Below, one piece after another: positions 4,709-50,823 of a stretch of DNA of 64,000 nt. The notes beneath the pieces were generated by a model, which searched no databases, was not told the DNA's origin, and saw nothing but the letters and a program-made list of their open reading frames with translations. Both the position numbers and the translations under genes were made by a program. This DNA is from an uncultured Ignavibacteria bacterium (lineage in GTDB: Bacteria > Zixibacteria > MSB-5A5 > SM1-73): contig CAYGCR010000009.1 in NCBI GenBank assembly GCA_964348415.1, positions 649-64,648 of the forward strand. Reading direction: 5' to 3'. Position 1 is the stretch's first letter, and the number at the start of each line of letters is the position of its first letter.

Positions 4709-5224
4709 ATGAAGGCAATGCGCAAGCTCTTTTCGAGCCAGGCCGGTTTTACCTTAGTCGAGCTGGCTATCGGACTGGTGATCATCGGTCTTTTGATCGG
4801 AGCCATTCTGGGAGGCGCCCAGATGATCAAGAACGCCAAGATCAAAAGGCAGGTGTCGGACCTCCGCGGTCTTTACGGAGCAGTATACACTTACTTCGAC
4901 AGATACCTGCAGCTGCCGGGCGACAATGACGCTGATGGTTATTTCGATGCCGACTCTGCGGTGTGGGCTGACATAGAGAACGATGAGTTAGCTTACGAGA
5001 ACAAGCGGAGTCCTTTTGGAGCCAAGTACTTTTTTGGTGCCGACACCTTAGGCACTCCGGTTGCCTACAGGAATGGAAACTACATCAGGGTCAGTTTGCC
5101 ACCGGATGTGGCGGAAAACGTCGATAAGCAGCTTGACGACGGGGTAGACAGCACCGGCTTTATCACAGCAGCTTCGCCTTACACCGGTACAGCGAAGATC
5201 AATGTCTATTACTTCGTGGACTAA
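4709..5224 (+). CDS. type IV pilin / pseudopilin (prepilin-type N-terminal cleavage/methylation domain)
   Basis: MKAMRKLFSSQAG|FTLVELAIGLVIIGLLIGAILGG is a classic G|FTLxE prepilin leader plus hydrophobic alpha1. RBS aaaggggg. Confidence 0.85.
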   Translation: MKAMRKLFSSQAGFTLVELAIGLVIIGLLIGAILGGAQMIKNAKIKRQVSDLRGLYGAVYTYFDRYLQLPGDNDADGYFDADSAVWADIENDELAYENKRSPFGAKYFFGADTLGTPVAYRNGNYIRVSLPPDVAENVDKQLDDGVDSTGFITAASPYTGTAKINVYYFVD

Positions 5225-5409
5225 GGGATAACAATCGGTGGGGAGGGGGGACTGGTGAAAACAGTCTCCCCTCCCCACCGAGTTCCCTTTTGCAGATCCT
5301 CCGATTTGTTTTCTCAGCAGGAGCAAGTTAGGATAACGCCGGTTAGGGTATCCTTCTCTGGAGATTCTGCTTGTGAGTTTTAGGGCACCGCTTTCACATA
5401 GAAGAATAG

Positions 5410-6261
5410 ATGAAACTCTCATTTTATCGGATGGATGAGAAAAGATCAGGCCAGGGATTCACCCTTCTGGAGTTGGCCATTACCATGGCCATAATTGGCC
5501 TGCTCATGGTTTCAGGGGTGGGCCTTTATGCCGCATTGGCCAAGAGGCAAAGGGAGGTTAAGACCAGGGAGGAAATGGAGGGCATCAGACAAGCGATTCT
5601 GGGCTACTATGAGAACTGCCTGGTGCTGCCATCTCCCGATTCCGGGTATCTTGTTCCCATTGAGGACCTTGAGCTTTCTCCCAACGCGCAGACCGACGAG
5701 CTCTATACCGGAAAATACTATGCTTATGTGACCACCAACGACGGATCGCCTTTTCCCGACCTGAAAGTGGACGGACAGTCCATAGGCAGTACGGCTATGG
5801 TTTTGATATCCAGCGGCACAAACTTGAAGTTCGACGAAAGTAATAACGACCTGACCGACGGCCAATACAGCCAGGACGGGACTACTGATGATTTCGATGA
5901 CATACTCCTGTATCTTTCAGCCAACGAACTGTCATCATCAACCGCCTGGAAAAGGGAGATAGAAGAGGAGGTGGCGGTTCTGAATAAGGCCGCAACAATC
6001 CTGGCTGAAAACGATGACGACGGAGACGGGTTCGTAGACGAGGATTCCACCGACGCGCCGGGCAATTCCGATAGCATGACCGACTGGAATTTGGTGACCG
6101 GAACACAGTCTCTGGTCAATGCAGGGCTTTTGTGGAATCCAGACCATCTGGTGGACCCGTGGGGCACCGAGTACTGCTGGAATTCGTTTGGTTATGAATT
6201 TTACTCTGCCGGTCCCAACAAAACCGATGAGGGCTGTGGCGGTGACGATATATGTCCTTAA
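5410..6261 (+). CDS. type IV pilin-like protein with acidic (Ca-binding-like) C-terminal region
   Basis: GQG|FTLLELAITMAIIGLLMVSG prepilin motif (alternative start ATG 5431). D/E-rich segments DDDGDGFVDEDSTDAPGNSDS. C-terminal Cys pair. Confidence 0.75.
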   Translation: MKLSFYRMDEKRSGQGFTLLELAITMAIIGLLMVSGVGLYAALAKRQREVKTREEMEGIRQAILGYYENCLVLPSPDSGYLVPIEDLELSPNAQTDELYTGKYYAYVTTNDGSPFPDLKVDGQSIGSTAMVLISSGTNLKFDESNNDLTDGQYSQDGTTDDFDDILLYLSANELSSSTAWKREIEEEVAVLNKAATILAENDDDGDGFVDEDSTDAPGNSDSMTDWNLVTGTQSLVNAGLLWNPDHLVDPWGTEYCWNSFGYEFYSAGPNKTDEGCGGDDICP

Positions 6262-38404: not shown

Positions 38405-38462
38405 GTGGCAAATATACCTGTTTTAACATCCAATGTAAAGTCGCCCTCAAGCAAAGAAAACA

Positions 38463-38485
38463 GGGGCGGGATGAATTCCCGCCCC
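38463..38485. repeat. palindromic hairpin repeat GGGGCGGG-ATGAATTC-CCGCCCC (copy 1), terminator-like
   Basis: 8-bp GC stem with EcoRI-site loop. On the minus strand it is followed by a U-rich tract, downstream of the 38623-40176 gene. Confidence 0.6.
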
Positions 38486-38622
38486 TATTAACTTCGCAGT
38501 TTCAGCACGGCTCGCATCCATGCGATCTGGACGGGTCCGATGAGCGGACGCCCTACAGGCCTGCAGGGGCCGTCCGCCTTCGTCCGTCTGGGTGAATCGA
38601 ACCCCCACGCCTCACTCCCTCA

Positions 38623-40176
38623 TCAGTCGCAAGGCGGTGAGCCTCCTCTAAACAAGTAGCTTATTACATAGACCACATCACCGGATTGAACTACACCGTC
38701 ACAGTTAGCGTCCCCAGCCTGCAAGATCGGGAGCGGCGGGGTCCCACCTCTGAACAAATAGCTTATCAGATAGACCACATCTCCAGCCTCAACGGCCCCG
38801 CTTTGATTGACATCTCCGCGCCAGAATTGAGCATATCTAATGGTGGTACAATCCTTCACAGTCAAGATCCCATCACTGAACCCGTTGACGTACACATTGC
38901 CAACGCTGTCCACTGCCAGGTCACGCCCGCCGTCAAAGCCAGCAACCGGTCCACCGTATGGTCCATCGTATCTTTCCACCCAGACCTCGTTACCTGAAGG
39001 ATCGTACTTGATGGTGGCGTAGTCGGGGTCTCCTTCTGTGCCAGGAGTTTGCCCGGTGACATAGACGTTTCCGGAATCATCTACTGCCAAAGCAAAAGCG
39101 CAATCGAAGGCACCCTCTACACCGTACAGCCTTACCCAAAGCTCATCACCCGAGGCATCATAAACTATGGTGCCATAGTCCTTGCAGTCGTATCACCCGC
39201 CCTCCATGTGGCTGGCCCCTGTCACATAAACTCGGCCCTCATGATCCACGGCTATGGCTTTGGGTACATCCGGCCCGTCTCCAGGACCGTTGTACCTTCT
39301 TACCCAGGCGGTGTCACCATTCGGATAGTACTTTATCGTGACGTAGTCGTCGTCTGAATCAGTGCTGTAACTTGTCCCGGTTACGTAGACATTGCCGGAA
39401 GCGTCCACAGCGACGGCTCTACCCGCATCCGCTCCGTTTCCCGGACCGTTGTACCTGCCCACCCAGGCGGTATCTCCGTCAGGATAGTACTTTATGGTTG
39501 CGCAGTCCGTGGCTGTCTCACTGGCGTAACTTTCTCCGGTTACGTAAGCAAAACCGAAATCATCTATGGCCAAGGCGTGAGCGCAATCAAGTTGATTTCC
39601 GGGTCCGTCGTAAGTCCTCAGCCAGGCTGTATCGCCGTTTGGATAGTACTTTATGAGGACATAGTCCTCATTTGTTTCCTCGTCGAGACTTTGTCCAGTG
39701 ACATATGCATTGCCGGAAGCGTCCAGCTCTACGGCCGTGGCAAAATCCTCGCCGTTGCCAGATCCATTATGCCGCCATACCCAGACCTCGCTGCCGGAAG
39801 AATCATACTTTATGGTGGCAATGTCTGAGTCCGTCCCCACTCCAAAGCTCCATCCGGTCACGTAAACGTTACCCGAGCCATCCACAGCTATGTCCTCAGT
39901 CACGTCATTCGAGCCGGCCGGTCCGTCGTAGCTTCCAACCCATTTAGCAATTCCATCTTTCGAGTACTTTATGGTAAGATAGTCGGTCGTGATGATATCA
40001 GAGACGTAACTGTTACCTGCAACGTAGAGATAGCCGGAAGCATCTAAAGCTAAGGCACCGCCTTCGACGATTGCCGGTCCGGCGTATCTCCTCACCCAGG
40101 CGGTATCGACGGACTGGGCAGCGGCAGACGCGCTAGCCAAAAGCAAAATCGCCAATATACAGAACTTTCTGGTCAT
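38623..40176 (-). CDS. secreted SBBP beta-propeller-repeat protein with C-terminal double dockerin-like module, containing an in-frame TGA (39193-39195). Candidate selenoprotein or disrupted gene.
   Basis: Signal peptide MTRKFCILAILLLASASAAAQ. About 8 repeats SGNVYVTG.S....DY.TIKY..G...W. The reading frame continues uninterrupted through TGA (…VTGASHMEGG-TGA-YDCKDYGTIVYDASG…) into ORF 38623-39090, which ends with two dockerin-like Ca loops (GDVNQSGAVEAGD / GDANCDGVVQSGD). Confidence 0.55.
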
Positions 40177-40197
40177 ACTCCGACTCCTACCTTAGGT

Positions 40198-40530
40198 TTA
40201 GGGGTTAGCCTTGCTCTCATGTGGCTTCTGGCAGAACTGTTTCGTCTCCTTGTATTTGCCGATGAACTCCTGATGTGACATGAACCCGTAATAGGTCTCC
40301 GGTTTGTCCGGCTCAAGTTCGTAAGCTTTATGAAGTACAGAGACGTCCTTCACGCCGTAGTGATTCCAGAATCTGAGAGGGTAGTACTCATAAGTGCCGG
40401 GGCTTCTCCGGCTTGCCGTCTAGGGACTGACTGCGCACGCGTAATCGAAGCACAGGAGCAGGAAAAAGAATATCCACAGTGCGTGGTGAAATCGTCTGGT
40501 GATTCTGATCCTCCTCATCTTGAGATTCAT
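40198..40530 (-). pseudogene. small secreted protein ORF interrupted by an in-frame TAG (40420-40422)
   Basis: Strong RBS aaggagg-ATG. MNLKMRRIRITRRFHHALWIFFFLLLCFDYACAVSP-TAG-TASRRSPGTYEYYPLRFWNHYGVKDVSVLHKAYELEPDKPETYYGFMSHQEFIGKYKETKQFCQKPHESKANP*. Signal-peptide-like N-terminus. Not in the ORF track because of the amber codon. Confidence 0.3.
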
Positions 40531-40843
40531 GCCTCCTTTGGCAGTGGCATCTCACCCTTTAATACGCACCACGTTCAGATGGGTTCAGAGTTTTTTCCAG
40601 AAGCCGGCTTCAGCCAACAGCGTCGGATAGGCCTTGCGACCATATCCGACCTAACTTTCTAACGAGAGCCACTGCGCAAGCCGATTTCCACAATATCATT
40701 TACAATGGCCTCACTTGCAGAAGGTCGGTGTTGGCACTTTGTTTCTGCAAACTCGTACTTATCCTTTGTGACTCTAATTGGCTGCCTCTTTCCCGCTACC
40801 ATGATGTGCGACTTGCTTTTATCTAGTGTTATCTGCAATGATA

Positions 40844-40865
40844 GGGGCGGGATGAATTCCCGCCC
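40844..40865. repeat. palindromic hairpin repeat GGGGCGGG-ATGAATTC-CCGCCC (copy 2)
   Basis: Identical core to copy 1. Located 3' of the 40977-42815 gene on the minus strand. Confidence 0.6.
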
Positions 40866-40976
40866 TTATCAGATCCACGATTTACTTGTTGGGGTCGCAC
40901 TCATGCGGCCGGTGGGCCTCCGTCCTTCGACAGGCTCAGGATGGTCAGTTTAAGGTCAGACTCATCTGCCTGAAGC

Positions 40977-42815
40977 TTAACCACAGCCTGGCGGGTCACC
41001 GTTTCTGAAAAGGTAGTTGACCAGAAAGACCACGTCACCGGGTTCAACCGCGCCGTCACAGTTGGCATCTCCGGCCCACAGAGGATAGGGAGGAGAATCA
41101 CCTCTGAAAAAGTAGTTTATCATATAGACTATATCCGAAGGGTCAACCACCCCGTCTGCGTTAGCGTCGCCCCGCAAGAAGACCTGGAAGGTCCAAGTTT
41201 CGGTTGACCAGGTTTCTGCATACTCATCATAAGCTCTCACCTTCCAGTAGTAGGTCCCCAGATCAAAGGCAGCCGTGTAACCGCTAGTCAAGAGGCCTCC
41301 GCAGACAGCCGTGGAGTCCGGATGGAAGGAAGGAGAATGACTGACATACAGGTCATATCTCACTTCGTCCAGGGGATCGGGGTCTATGGCATCTTCCCAT
41401 TCGAAGATCACAATGAAACTCAAAAGAGAGCTGTCCGGGGGCATAAGGAGGGAAAACGCATCAGGAGGGGAGTTCTCCACATACTTTATGGTGGCGTAGT
41501 CGTATCCTGTGGCACCACCTTCACTATAACCGGTCACGTAGACGTTGCCGGAATCGTCCAAAGCTATGTCACGCCCCCCGTGCCAGCCCTCTGCCTGCCC
41601 GTGGTACCTTTGTATCCAAGCCACGCTCCCCAAAGAATCATACTTAATGGTGGCATAGTCCACGTACGGTGACATATCCATACTCTCTCCGGTTACGTAG
41701 ACATTGCCGGAATCGTCTACTGCCAGAGCATAAGGTCGATCAGAGTCGAAAGGTCCGTAGTACGTTGCTTCCCAAAGGACATTACCCGAGGCACCATAAA
41801 CTATGGTGCCGAAACAGCTGCAGGACGCTCACCCGGTCGAGGTTCGGAGGGCTCCTGTCACGCAGACTCGACCCCCGGCATCAACCGCCAAATCATACGG
41901 TCTATCCGGTCCGTTCACCGGACCATTATATCGTCTTGTCCAGGCAGTATCTCCATTTGGGTAGTACATTACCGTGAGGTAATCCTTGTCAGTGCTCTCT
42001 AAGTAACTCTGACCTGTCACATATACGTTACCCTGTGGGTCTACAGCTATGGCAAGAGCTGCATCCCAGGCGGCACCCGGACTGGTGAATCGCCGCACCC
42101 ACGCGGTGTCACCGTTTGGATGGTATTTTACGGTGGCATAGTCGAAGCCCGTCGCCGCGGTCAGGCTTTGTCCGGTCACCAGGATGTAACCAGACTCGTC
42201 CAAGGCCACCGCCGTAGCGTAATCGTAGTCGTTGTCCGGGCCGTCGTATCTCCTCAGCCACAGGGTGTCTCCGGCAGGGCCATACTTTATTGTGACATAG
42301 TCCCTGTTTGTGTCCTCATACAGGCCTTGGCCGGTCACATAGACATTCCCCAAATCGTCCGCGGCTACCCCCGTGGCAAAATCCTCACCGTTAGACGTTC
42401 CGTTATACCTCCTGACCCAAAGCTCGTTTCCGGAGCCATCATACTTCACGGTGGCCCAATCCACCCCTGTTTCAGAGCCGGTGCTCCAGCCGCTCACGTA
42501 CACATTTCCAGAAGCGTCCACTGCTATCACGTTGGCCACGTCATCGAGGCCGGCCGGTCCGTCGTATCTTCTGACCCAGGCGGTGTCTCCATCTGGAAGA
42601 TACTTTATGGTGAGATAGTCCCACCATGTCCCACTGCCGGTACTGTATCCGGTGACGTACGCGTTGCCTGATCCATCAACTGCTATAGCCAGAGCCTTGT
42701 CCCAGGCGCTTGCCGGCCCGTCGTATCTGCTTACCCAAGCGGCTCCCATGTTCTGAGCTACTACCGGCGTACTTGCCAAAAGCAAGATCACAAAAACGAA
42801 AAACGTTCTGGTCAT
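40977..42815 (-). CDS. secreted SBBP beta-propeller-repeat / dockerin paralog with in-frame TGA (41829-41831) at the position homologous to the neighbouring gene. Candidate selenoprotein.
   Basis: Signal peptide MTRTFFVFVILLLASTPVVAQ (ATG 42815). Frame continues …VTGALRTSTG-TGA-ASCSCFGTIVYGASG… into ORF 40977-41681. C-terminal dockerin-like loops (GDANADGVVDPSD / GDANCDGAVEPGD). 33 nt downstream of the TGA are nearly identical to the paralog. Confidence 0.55.
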
Positions 42816-43096
42816 GCGGCGACTCCGTTTTGAAGGTGAGGAGCAGAATAGATGTCTTCTCTTGTATGAAGGTGTTCCACCACTACTATAACTCAAAAAT
42901 CCGAAAAATCAAGAAAAATCTTTCCCTGCGAACGCATACCTTGTCCCCTTCCCAGATCGCAGGTGTTAGGCAACAGTGACACGTTGACTCACAGTGTGCA
43001 TTGGGCCTTTCCTTAGTGCTCCCCATCAAGCGGATGAGAACAGATCAGTAGTAGGGGTCGCATTTATGTGACCCGCGGGTTCTATGAATTGAACCC

Positions 43097-48756: not shown

Positions 48757-50031
48757 TCAGTCACTCTGAAACGAATTCAAGAATTCACCTACCGTGTAGT
48801 GCGAGCCGGTTAAGCAGATAATGTCGTCAGCCTTGGCTCCCTTCAGAGCGAAAAGGTAAGCTTGCGTGACTTGGGGCACGATTTCGACCGGTATATCTTT
48901 TTTTGCGATTGCTTTTTTCAAATCCTCTGGATCGGCCGCCCTCTTGTAATCCGGCTTGGTGAGAATCAGAAATTCTGCTTTCCTACAAATCTCCTTTAGC
49001 ATCGCCTGGTGGTCTTTGTCTTCCATGACTCCGAAAACAAAGATGATTCGCTTCCCGGGGAAGAGTTGATCCAGAGAGTGAATCAAAGCTGTCATTCCCG
49101 GCGGATTGTGAGCTACATCCAACAAGACCAAAGGCTCCTTCCTAAAGACTTCCAGCCTTGCCCGCCAGTTTACTTGCTTTAGACCTCTCCTGATTGCGGG
49201 TTCATCAACTTTCCAGCCCAATTCCCTCAGCTTTTGAGCCGCGGTCAGAGAAGTCAAGGCGTTTCGAAGCTGATGCTCGCCTGCCAAGTTCAATTCGAGG
49301 TTTTGGTAGTCAACAGAATTCGAGGAAAAATTGAATGTCCAACCATAAATGGAGGAGTCTGACATCTCGCAGTTTGATCCGTCCTGAACGCGGATAAGCT
49401 CTGATTTTCTCTGCGCACAAACAGCTCTGATCGCATCCAGGGCTTCCGCCTGATCCACCGCGGTGATGGTAGGGACGCCACGCTTAACGATTCCTGCTTT
49501 TTCGTTGGCTATCTGGGGAATGGCATCTCCCAGATGTTTGGTGTGTTCCCGCCCTATATTCGTGATGATCGAGAGCAGCGGCGTTACCATATTGGTGGCA
49601 TCCAATCTGCCGCCCAGACCTGTTTCCACAACCGCTACATCCGCCTGCTTCTGAGCAAAATACTGAAACGCCAGGGCGGTGGTCACTTCGAAGAAGGTAT
49701 AGCCTTTTTGTTCGATCTCATCCTTGAGCTTGTGGACAAAATCTAAAATGAAATCTTTGTCCACCAACTCATATCCGATCTTGACTCTCTCCCGAAAATC
49801 CACCAGGTGGGGAGAGGTATACAGCCCCGCTTTGTATCCAGACTCGCAGAGAATCGAATGGAGAATCGCCGCAACCGAGCCTTTGCCATTGGTTCCGGCA
49901 ATATGGATGGAGGGAAACCTATCGTGTGGATTCCCCAGTCTTCGCAGGATTCCGGTGATGTTTGACAGATCTAGCTTTATCCCAAACCGCTCGAGATTAT
50001 ACAGGTAAGAAATCGTCTCTTGATAACTCAT
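48757..50031 (-). CDS. folC: bifunctional folylpolyglutamate synthase / dihydrofolate synthase
   Basis: Mur-ligase P-loop HIAGTNGKGSV, FolC-type middle and C-terminal domains. ATG 50031 with RBS aaagggga. Confidence 0.85.
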   Translation of the reverse strand: MSYQETISYLYNLERFGIKLDLSNITGILRRLGNPHDRFPSIHIAGTNGKGSVAAILHSILCESGYKAGLYTSPHLVDFRERVKIGYELVDKDFILDFVHKLKDEIEQKGYTFFEVTTALAFQYFAQKQADVAVVETGLGGRLDATNMVTPLLSIITNIGREHTKHLGDAIPQIANEKAGIVKRGVPTITAVDQAEALDAIRAVCAQRKSELIRVQDGSNCEMSDSSIYGWTFNFSSNSVDYQNLELNLAGEHQLRNALTSLTAAQKLRELGWKVDEPAIRRGLKQVNWRARLEVFRKEPLVLLDVAHNPPGMTALIHSLDQLFPGKRIIFVFGVMEDKDHQAMLKEICRKAEFLILTKPDYKRAADPEDLKKAIAKKDIPVEIVPQVTQAYLFALKGAKADDIICLTGSHYTVGEFLNSFQSD

Positions 50032-50094
50032 GGACAACCCATCCCCTTTATCCATTCCATCCGTTGACTCATCCTTTCGGTCCGTGAAATCCGC

Positions 50095-50823
50095 TCAATC
50101 CGCTGGCCAGCTTATCAGCAGCCCCACCCAGAATTCATTTTCATCATTTATAGTTTCATTAGGCACGATCACATAGTTGATGCTGGGACTCAGAGTAATT
50201 CCTTTCAGACCAAAATCGGTGGAAATCCCAAGACAGATATCCGAGAAGCCCGGATCGACTCCGATGCCACGATACTGCTCGGTATATCCTACTAGGATAT
50301 TCGAACAAAGAACTTTGCCTACCACATGAAAATCACGACTCAACGATATCGTAGTATAAATTCCGTCTCCCAGGTTGAAATCATAATACAGACTTACAGA
50401 CGGCGACATGGGAATAGAGTTTGCAGTCACCCCCGCATATACCTCGGGCGTAGCCGAATTATTGTCCGGATAACCCGATATGGTGGGAAAGGTGAAATAG
50501 CCGAATCCAGCTGAAACACTCATGTGTTCGGAGAGGGGCCTATCATAACCTAAAACCAAGTCCAGTTCTACAAAATCGGTGTCGGCTAATGCCACCGCGG
50601 ACCAGAGATTGAACCACACTCCACTCTTGCCGAAACCGAACGTGACCGAGGGCTGTATGGCGGGACGATCGTCAACAATGGTATCAAATCCTCTCCATAT
50701 GTATTTCGAGACGACAGCCAGGTCGGAACGAAAACCGATTCTTGCCGGGCTGGTTTGGGGAAGCAAGAGAAGAGTCAGAATCGCAAAGCTTAAAACGGAG
50801 ATGCTTCTACTGGCGATTTTCAT
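50095..50823 (-). CDS. putative outer-membrane beta-barrel protein
   Basis: Signal peptide MKIASRSISVLSFAILTLLLLPQTSPA. Alternating hydrophobic beta-strand pattern rich in G/Y/F. No family assigned. Confidence 0.4.
   Translation of the reverse strand: MKIASRSISVLSFAILTLLLLPQTSPARIGFRSDLAVVSKYIWRGFDTIVDDRPAIQPSVTFGFGKSGVWFNLWSAVALADTDFVELDLVLGYDRPLSEHMSVSAGFGYFTFPTISGYPDNNSATPEVYAGVTANSIPMSPSVSLYYDFNLGDGIYTTISLSRDFHVVGKVLCSNILVGYTEQYRGIGVDPGFSDICLGISTDFGLKGITLSPSINYVIVPNETINDENEFWVGLLISWPAD

Follow-up and report, generated by a model that had tools for sequence, protein, structure and literature searches.

Two neighbouring genes for secreted repeat proteins, on the minus strand of a 64,000-nucleotide stretch from an uncultured Ignavibacteria bacterium (Zixibacteria in the GTDB lineage; contig CAYGCR010000009.1), are each crossed by one in-frame TGA, which raises the question of whether this codon ends translation or is decoded, and if so, as what. 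We call the whole stretch the window, number positions from its first letter, and refer to the two genes as gene 1 and gene 2. The initial annotation, made from the letters alone, had proposed both as candidate selenoproteins with a selenocysteine insertion sequence (SECIS). The part of this proposal that stands is the decoding of the gene 2 UGA, whereas selenocysteine (Sec) and the SECIS keep the status of predictions: gene 2 is almost certainly translated in frame through its UGA, as judged from the comparison of orthologues, and we assign a probability of about 0.6 to Sec being the inserted residue. The features that matter for this argument are the following.

40977..42815, minus strand: gene 2, a read-through open reading frame (ORF) of 612 codons, in which the UGA is codon 329.
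41829..41831, minus strand: in-frame TGA of gene 2, the candidate Sec codon, the same in all gene 2 orthologues at a synonymous divergence (dS) of up to 2.2.
41814..41822, minus strand: Cys codons of gene 2 at +3 (TGC, 41820-41822) and +5 (TGT, 41814-41816) of the TGA, giving U-x-x-C-x-C.
42753..42815, minus strand: putative signal peptide of gene 2 (MTRTFFVFVILLLASTPVVAQ), recognized by reading the sequence.
41007..41171, minus strand: dockerin repeats of gene 2 (41106-41171 and 41007-41072), matching Pfam Dockerin_1.
38623..40176, minus strand: gene 1, a read-through ORF of 517 codons, in which the UGA is codon 328.
39193..39195, minus strand: in-frame TGA of gene 1, present in every strain recovered.
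39184..39186, minus strand: Cys codon (TGC) at +3 of the gene 1 TGA, from the sequence and the comparison of strains.
38650..38817, minus strand: dockerin repeats of gene 1 (38752-38817 and 38650-38715), matching Pfam Dockerin_1.

Both products are SBBP beta-propeller repeat proteins with a type I dockerin, and the curated Pfam cut-offs are exceeded in each case: SBBP (PF06739) matches gene 1 and gene 2 with E=3e-35 and 4e-37 (120 and 126 bits; cut-off 20.5), and Dockerin_1 (PF00404) with E=6e-8 and 1e-7 (33.2 and 32.5 bits; cut-off 22.9). Gene 2, with a GGAG ribosome-binding site directly upstream of its signal peptide, continues with eight SBBP blades, an extra domain of ~95 amino acids (aa) and a double dockerin; gene 1 consists of a signal peptide, eight SBBP blades and a double dockerin. 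The initial description of the reading frames was borne out in all its parts. Each gene crosses a single TGA (39195-39193 and 41831-41829) with the frame unchanged, and in the codon alignment the two TGAs occupy one residue position of blade 6, within the loop that joins ...YVTG to ...TI(K)Y (...VTGASHMEGG-TGA-YDCKDYGTIVY... in gene 1 and ...VTGALRTSTG-TGA-ASCSCFGTIVY... in gene 2). A Cys codon stands three codons past the TGA in both, and the open frames that follow are long (189 codons in gene 1, 283 in gene 2), match the SBBP and double dockerin profiles in Pfam, and have neither a signal peptide nor a ribosome-binding site of their own. The first in-frame ATG, GTG or TTG after the TGA comes 34 codons on in gene 1 and 50 codons on in gene 2. 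Since the SBBP blades share one frame on either side of the TGA in both genes, a programmed frameshift at the UGA, of the prfB type, is ruled out.

The two halves of each gene are recorded in databases as separate proteins, those of the window itself at NCBI on a 72.5-kb contig, and clusters at 90% identity together with a protein search led us to contigs with orthologues in no fewer than eight independent datasets (JGI, ENA, NCBI and Logan). Gene 1 orthologues were found on contigs L001, L002, L148-L152 and L154, and gene 2 orthologues on L149, L153, L154/L155, L156 and L157/L158, the latter set representing at least six independent metagenomes and four lineages. C-terminal fragments of further gene 2 orthologues, with 70-78% identity, are on record as P0287, P0305 and P0347. 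The TGA and the Cys at +3 are retained in every copy of either gene that was recovered. In the paralogues, the Cys at +3 is invariant within a loop that is otherwise variable, and both Cys codons of gene 2 (+3 and +5) are unchanged across the four gene 2 lineages. The gene 1 cluster members with an intact N-terminal part all terminate at this TGA, with a length of 327 aa.

The evidence for translation through the UGA is provided by gene 2. Its orthologues are collinear and indel-free at 1839 nucleotides (nt) each, with no indel and no extra stop over 613 codons, at pairwise dS values of 0.4-2.2 across the four lineages. Downstream of the TGA, where 163-254 substitutions separate each pair, the ratio of nonsynonymous to synonymous rates (dN/dS) is 0.14-0.22, with binomial P values down to 1e-22 against neutrality; upstream it is 0.09-0.21, and the ratios of synonymous to nonsynonymous changes do not differ between the two sides. 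The conserved TGA, Cys and length, combined with equal purifying selection on both sides, indicate that gene 2 is read through rather than being a pseudogene. Codons +1 to +49, all of them ahead of the first in-frame ATG, GTG or TTG, are constrained as well (dN/dS 0.07-0.29, P 3e-7 to 5e-3), and selection on these 49 codons rules out a separately initiated C-terminal polypeptide. In addition, all three TGA bases are invariant at saturated synonymous divergence even though six of the nine possible single-base changes would give a sense codon, which argues for specific decoding. The gene 2 TGA is real and ancient.

The genetic code of this genome is standard, so that any recoding of UGA here would be site-specific. 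TGA terminates 11 of the 41 long ORFs of the window, including mnmE, mnmG and folC, and none of these 11 could be extended meaningfully past its TGA; this rules out the UGA-reassigned codes (tables 4 and 25), in agreement with the initial exclusion of a sense-UGA code. One further in-frame TGA was seen on the minus strand, where a Gcw_chp-family gene (50095-50823) and folC (48757-50055) share one frame with a single TGA between them; as these are separate genes, each with its own start, we consider this a coincidence and not recoding. ARAGORN found tRNAs for Thr, Met and Ser(UGA) only, and an Rfam search of the whole window returned those tRNAs only, consistent with the earlier remark that the window holds no tRNA-Sec and that its tRNA-Ser has the anticodon UGA.

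We next consider the RNA downstream of the UGA, where both genes carry the 21-nt palindrome GGCACCATAGTTTATGRTGCC after the Cys codon (39154-39174 and 41790-41810).

41790..41810, minus strand: hairpin GGCACCAUA-GUU-UAUGGUGCC of gene 2, the candidate SECIS, with nine perfect base pairs and -12.9 kcal/mol.
39154..39174, minus strand: the equivalent hairpin of gene 1, with GAU for GGU, which creates a C.A mismatch at pair 5.

The initial annotation had described this element correctly as perfect in one copy and mismatched once in the other. In gene 2, the stem begins 18 nt past the UGA and the GUU loop 27 nt past it, and the hairpin is the most stable among the 16 equivalent blade positions of both genes. 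The model behind bSECISearch reportedly permits a distance of 16-37 nt, with a conserved G in a small apical loop as its key feature. The account of the bacterial SECIS model in PMC1976440 stresses this conserved apical-loop G. The seven codons that form the gene 2 hairpin have accumulated one synonymous change across the four lineages against 5.3 expected, the lowest rate of 83 comparable windows (Poisson P=0.03), and this single change, C-G to U-G in L149, keeps the pairing. Among nine distinct sequences, seven of the nine pairs never vary. The hairpin exists and is synonymously constrained.

The protein sequence departs from the family consensus at the same place. Compared with 3173 SBBP blades, blade 6 has Val (GUU, 0.09%) for a Lys present in 95.6%, Gly (GGC, 1.6%) for Ala, Gly at +1 (2.4%) and Ala at +2 (17%), and the string G-T-[IVL]-V-Y occurs in none of them. 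These departures coincide with the residues that form the palindrome. Together with the low synonymous rate they argue for selection at the RNA level; alternatively, they could reflect co-adaptation of the protein to the longer loop. A further argument of the initial annotation, an exceptional nucleotide conservation between the paralogues, did not survive in its original strength. The 31 of 33 identical nt fall to 29 of 33 if two R positions count as differences, the same similarity is reached in a second window, and the longest exact run here (16 nt) is exceeded by one of 18 nt elsewhere. Around the TGA the paralogues do share 14 consecutive identical codons at identical residues (against a background of 0.55 per codon, ~2e-4 raw and ~0.03 corrected), and exceptional conservation of nucleotides between them is weakly supported.

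To place the loop in its family, we compared it with homologues outside this clade. SBBP proteins give thousands of matches, of which the closest full-length ones are 50-56% identical and come mostly from metagenome-assembled genomes of Zixibacteria. In all 30 aligned full-length homologues the site of the TGA is occupied by an ordinary G/S/T-rich loop, three residues shorter and without Cys. The same holds for P0227, which among full-length proteins is closest to gene 2 and shares its architecture, extra domain included. A search of 1.8 Mb from 147 related loci revealed no other in-frame TGA inside an SBBP blade, so that two TGAs at one residue are not a matter of chance. Scans of metagenomes and GTDB genomes, queried with the gene 1 protein, found no relative above 56% identity, no further in-frame TGA and no binned genome of this lineage, and a protein search with full-length gene 2 was dominated by long multi-blade proteins, with nothing close. 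The UGA-x-x-Cys loop, as far as these sequences indicate, is limited to one lineage.

Gene 1 and gene 2 are 57% identical and form one clade in 100 of 100 bootstraps of a neighbour-joining tree with 18 homologues, in which gene 1 branches outside all gene 2 orthologues. This single clade implies one origin, older than the duplication, for the TGA, the Cys and the G-T-I-V-Y strand, and the duplication itself is older than the separation of the L157 species. Recent conversion of one paralogue by the other does not account for the shared TGA: between the blocks of identical sequence, 12 of 15 codon positions are different, and the clade speaks for one old origin. The gene 2 orthologue at the greatest distance, on L157/L158 (69% protein identity), lies in the order gyrA, 5-formyl-tetrahydrofolate (THF) cyclo-ligase, gene 2, mnmE, with no gene 1 there; on L157 (8912-12544), the gene 2 type stands alone at the syntenic site and is followed by a 90-aa ORF and mnmE. 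In the L157 species gene 1 is either lost or located elsewhere in the genome. Between the window and L149, DNA identity is 95-97.5% for gene 1, ~91.5% for the flanking housekeeping genes and 83% for gene 2, a pattern suggesting either that strains have recently exchanged gene 1 or that rates are very uneven.

The surroundings of the site also vary. A search for positional orthologues beside gyrA or mnmE showed that more distant relatives (GyrA 80-83% identical) hold unrelated dockerin proteins there. Across related strains and species, the site between gyrA/5-formyl-THF cyclo-ligase and mnmE is occupied by differing dockerin-bearing secreted proteins, for example a LamG-like protein, a large metalloprotease-like protein, a peptidase C25 and another propeller (L052 3804-5447; L031 1298-4504; L148 2068-8083; L002 30-1082). 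This position seems to be a hotspot at which the dockerin cargo varies.

We propose the following scenario. One ancestral SBBP-propeller/dockerin gene would have given rise to both genes, after its blade 6 loop, between strands 2 and 3, had been lengthened by about three residues and had gained a UGA with x-x-Cys behind it. Ribosomes would decode this codon, most probably as Sec, and the mRNA hairpin would act as a bacterial SECIS that recruits SelB and Sec-tRNA. Sec is favoured by the standard code, the U-x-x-C motif and the position of a hairpin with a small, G-containing loop. The full-length product would be exported by its N-terminal signal peptide and anchored by its C-terminal dockerin, and its propeller would carry a loop with Sec-x-x-Cys (Sec-x-x-Cys-x-Cys in gene 2), suited to a selenenylsulfide redox couple or to the binding of a soft metal. 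In propellers, the loops between strands 2 and 3 lie on the face that usually holds binding or catalytic sites, and by analogy the blade 6 loop is expected on that face. Gene 2 would be fully functional, and in gene 1 the hairpin would have been weakened by the G-to-A change, with relaxed constraint past the UGA. We infer the role of the hairpin as a SECIS, as well as the chemistry of the loop.

Several observations weigh against Sec and a SECIS. The usual criterion for a selenoprotein is a Cys-containing homologue aligned to the Sec (PMC12013277), and Cys/Sec pairing is likewise given as the usual criterion in PMC1976440. Here, Cys aligns to the UGA in none of the 30 full-length homologues, P0227 included, and neither a C-x-x-C nor a conserved Cys was found in the loop in 1025 blades of the first 120 homologues or in the 1.8 Mb of related loci; such a pair, as the alignments stand, is absent, although this criterion is not strictly defining. 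In the comparison of homologues that the initial annotation had suggested, orthologues keep the TGA, and neither a Cys homologue nor a covarying hairpin was found. None of selA, selB, selC (tRNA-Sec) and selD was found in the 64-kb window or in ~70 kb of loci from the same lineage, which together are a small fraction of the genome, and no tRNA-Sec, SelD motif or known selenoprotein gene turned up there or in the other loci recovered, which likewise represent little of any genome. As for the hairpin, one pair is broken in all five gene 1 sequences (GAU for GGU), an Ala-to-Thr change in L157 introduces another C.A mismatch, and compensatory changes or covariation are lacking among the nine distinct sequences. 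The RNAalifold consensus structure uses other pairs, Rfam at permissive thresholds returned only noise on both TGA regions, and the folding energy of the whole segment is no better than that of shuffled sequences (z -0.35 and -0.65); the gene 1 segment has another hairpin as its minimum-energy fold. Moreover, blade 2 of gene 2 (42440-42475), which has no TGA, contains a palindrome at -10.7 kcal/mol, indicating that part of the self-complementarity comes free with the T-I-x-Y codons. ATA (Ile) and TAT (Tyr) are reverse complements, so that these codons build a small palindrome into every SBBP blade, and hairpin-based SECIS predictors are therefore prone to false positives in this family. Finally, the part of gene 1 downstream of the TGA has a dN/dS of 0.4-0.8, indistinguishable from neutral, compared with 0.14-0.29 upstream.

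How far do other explanations account for these data? An assembly or sequencing error, which the initial annotation had named as a possible refutation, or a UGA read as a sense codon genome-wide, can practically be dismissed, since the same TGA recurs in at least eight independent datasets and TGA ends long ORFs, housekeeping genes among them, none of which extends meaningfully. If instead the genes were nonsense-mutated pseudogenes, the TGA would be inactivating and the downstream frames decaying remnants. The initial annotation had held a nonsense mutation to be unlikely; this judgement stands for gene 2, where purifying selection on the downstream substitutions and the absence of stops and indels exclude decay, but is less secure for gene 1, whose downstream part looks relaxed. 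Its ratio of synonymous to nonsynonymous changes is lower downstream than upstream in six of six strain pairs (Fisher P 0.007-0.36), two in-frame deletions are seen in the L151 copy, P0234 represents a variant with a frameshift, L001 combines an additional stop with a change of frame, and the small ORF between the two genes is also interrupted. Yet the L001 break is located where homology ends and may stem from a chimeric assembly, and the downstream part of gene 1 still matches the SBBP and dockerin profiles despite its divergence from gene 2. Its downstream dS is 0.04-0.10 against 0.13-0.17 upstream; having diverged less than the upstream synonymous sites, this part is not simply drifting. 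We therefore consider it very unlikely that the pair are pseudogenes, and gene 1 is best read, from these rates, as a copy under relaxed constraint past the UGA and not as a dead gene. Treating the two genes alike, as had been done initially, was right for the TGA, which they share by descent, but not for the selection acting downstream of it. A split gene, with the part after the TGA made separately by re-initiation and the halves assembling afterwards, is highly improbable too. Gene callers do annotate two ORFs in every assembly, but the start they choose varies by strain (GTG, TTG or ATG, at different codons) and has no ribosome-binding site, the gene 2 codons ahead of the first in-frame start are under purifying selection, and the second half, lacking a signal peptide, could not join a secreted first half. 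Re-initiation at a GTG overlapping the TGA is ruled out, as this frame is a different one and closes after 12 codons.

It is more difficult to separate Sec from read-through that is independent of it, in which a tRNA for Trp, Cys, Arg or Gly, either near-cognate or dedicated, would decode the UGA, perhaps stimulated by the hairpin, and yield a mixture of truncated and full-length protein. Such read-through would explain the downstream purifying selection without Sec machinery, none of which was seen in the small fraction of the genome searched, and it agrees with the lack of Cys homologues and with the tolerated mismatches in the hairpin. However, the TGA has stayed invariant over dS >1 although most single-base changes would have given a sense codon, a fragment of six blades that lacks the dockerin would probably be of little use, and equal constraint on both sides of the gene 2 UGA is unexpected if few ribosomes pass it. 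A precedent from the bacterial world is the A1 protein of phage Q-beta, in which UGA is read through by tRNA-Trp at low efficiency and both products are functional; for chromosomal genes of bacteria, programmed read-through of UGA is, to our knowledge, not established as a class. We regard this explanation as unlikely, if a serious one. Decoding outside the canonical Sec system in the broader sense, whether by hairpin-assisted programmed read-through or by a SelC-like tRNA carrying another amino acid, similarly seems doubtful to us. If true, a secreted structural protein would have kept such decoding for a long time at a position where its relatives lack both Cys and Sec.

The remaining features concern the flanks of the two genes.

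42885..42912, minus strand: promoter-like site upstream of gene 2 (TTGATT-16-TATAGT), a consensus match only.
38459..38489, minus strand: hairpin resembling an intrinsic terminator, downstream of gene 1 (GGGGCGGGAAUUCAUCCCGCCCC, then a T run), from the sequence.
38464-38484 and 40845-40865, minus strand: 21-nt palindrome GGGCGGGAATTCATCCCGCCC, identical after both SBBP genes, from the sequence.

Promoter-like consensus sites are no commoner in this DNA than in shuffles. The palindrome GGGCGGGAATTCATCCCGCCC recurs behind neighbouring genes in related strains (L002 ~1170-1200, L157 ~10950; translated string GREFIPPL) and resembles either a terminator common to these genes or a short repeat. Gene 1 and gene 2 are separated by a small ORF (window 40200-40523, minus strand; L149 2409-2949; L148 8412-8768) that encodes a signal peptide and a part of ~70 aa; an in-frame stop lies just past the signal peptide in the window (TAG) and in L149, and in L148 and L002 the two parts do not share a frame. 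This could be one gene in decay or a pair of short ORFs. Elsewhere in the window (4709-6261, plus strand), two ORFs with a type IV prepilin N-terminus (GFTLVELAIG..., GFTLLELAITMAIIGLL) head a run of co-directional genes that extends to ~15.5 kb and is probably a pilus or type II secretion cluster.

Taken together, the two genes are good candidates, as yet unproven, for a new selenoprotein family within a known recoding mechanism. A literature search on propeller or dockerin selenoproteins, or on Sec in Zixibacteria, returned nothing relevant. If the Sec assignment is right, the family would be an unusual one, an extracellular, dockerin-anchored beta-propeller from an uncultured sediment bacterium, and the origin of its Sec-x-x-Cys loop would be an insertion instead of the replacement of Cys with Sec, as no Cys-containing ancestors are in sight. 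It would also point to a wider extracellular use of selenium, for example to carry out redox reactions or to bind soft metals on a surface assembly that resembles a cellulosome, and the contrast between gene 1 and gene 2 would offer a natural test of whether weakening of a SECIS relaxes selection on the remainder of a gene. Annotation pipelines all called two fragments, and selenoprotein finders that need Cys/Sec pairs would miss these genes as well.

Compared with bacterial selenoprotein genes that carry a SECIS within the ORF, such as fdhF and the U-x-x-C redox families, the two genes are alike in having an in-frame UGA conserved among orthologues under a standard code, a Cys three residues after the UGA, a predicted stem-loop within the coding sequence with a small G-containing apical loop tens of nt downstream, and, in gene 2, full coding constraint on the downstream part. 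They differ in that Cys homologues are absent, the hairpin tolerates mismatches and shows no covariation, no Sec machinery was seen in the small fraction of the genome searched, and the protein is a secreted dockerin-bearing beta-propeller instead of a thioredoxin-like or other redox fold. With phage Q-beta A1 they share a UGA that must be passed to make the essential longer product, but here the short product would be an incomplete propeller and constraint is equal on both sides of the UGA. The eight blades, the signal peptide and the C-terminal double dockerin are those of the SBBP/dockerin proteins of Zixibacteria and neighbouring candidate phyla. Unlike the sampled homologues, with their G/S/T-rich loop and the Lys of the T-I-K-Y strand, only this clade has the loop that is longer by three residues, with UGA-x-x-Cys, and the G-T-I-V-Y strand that follows it.

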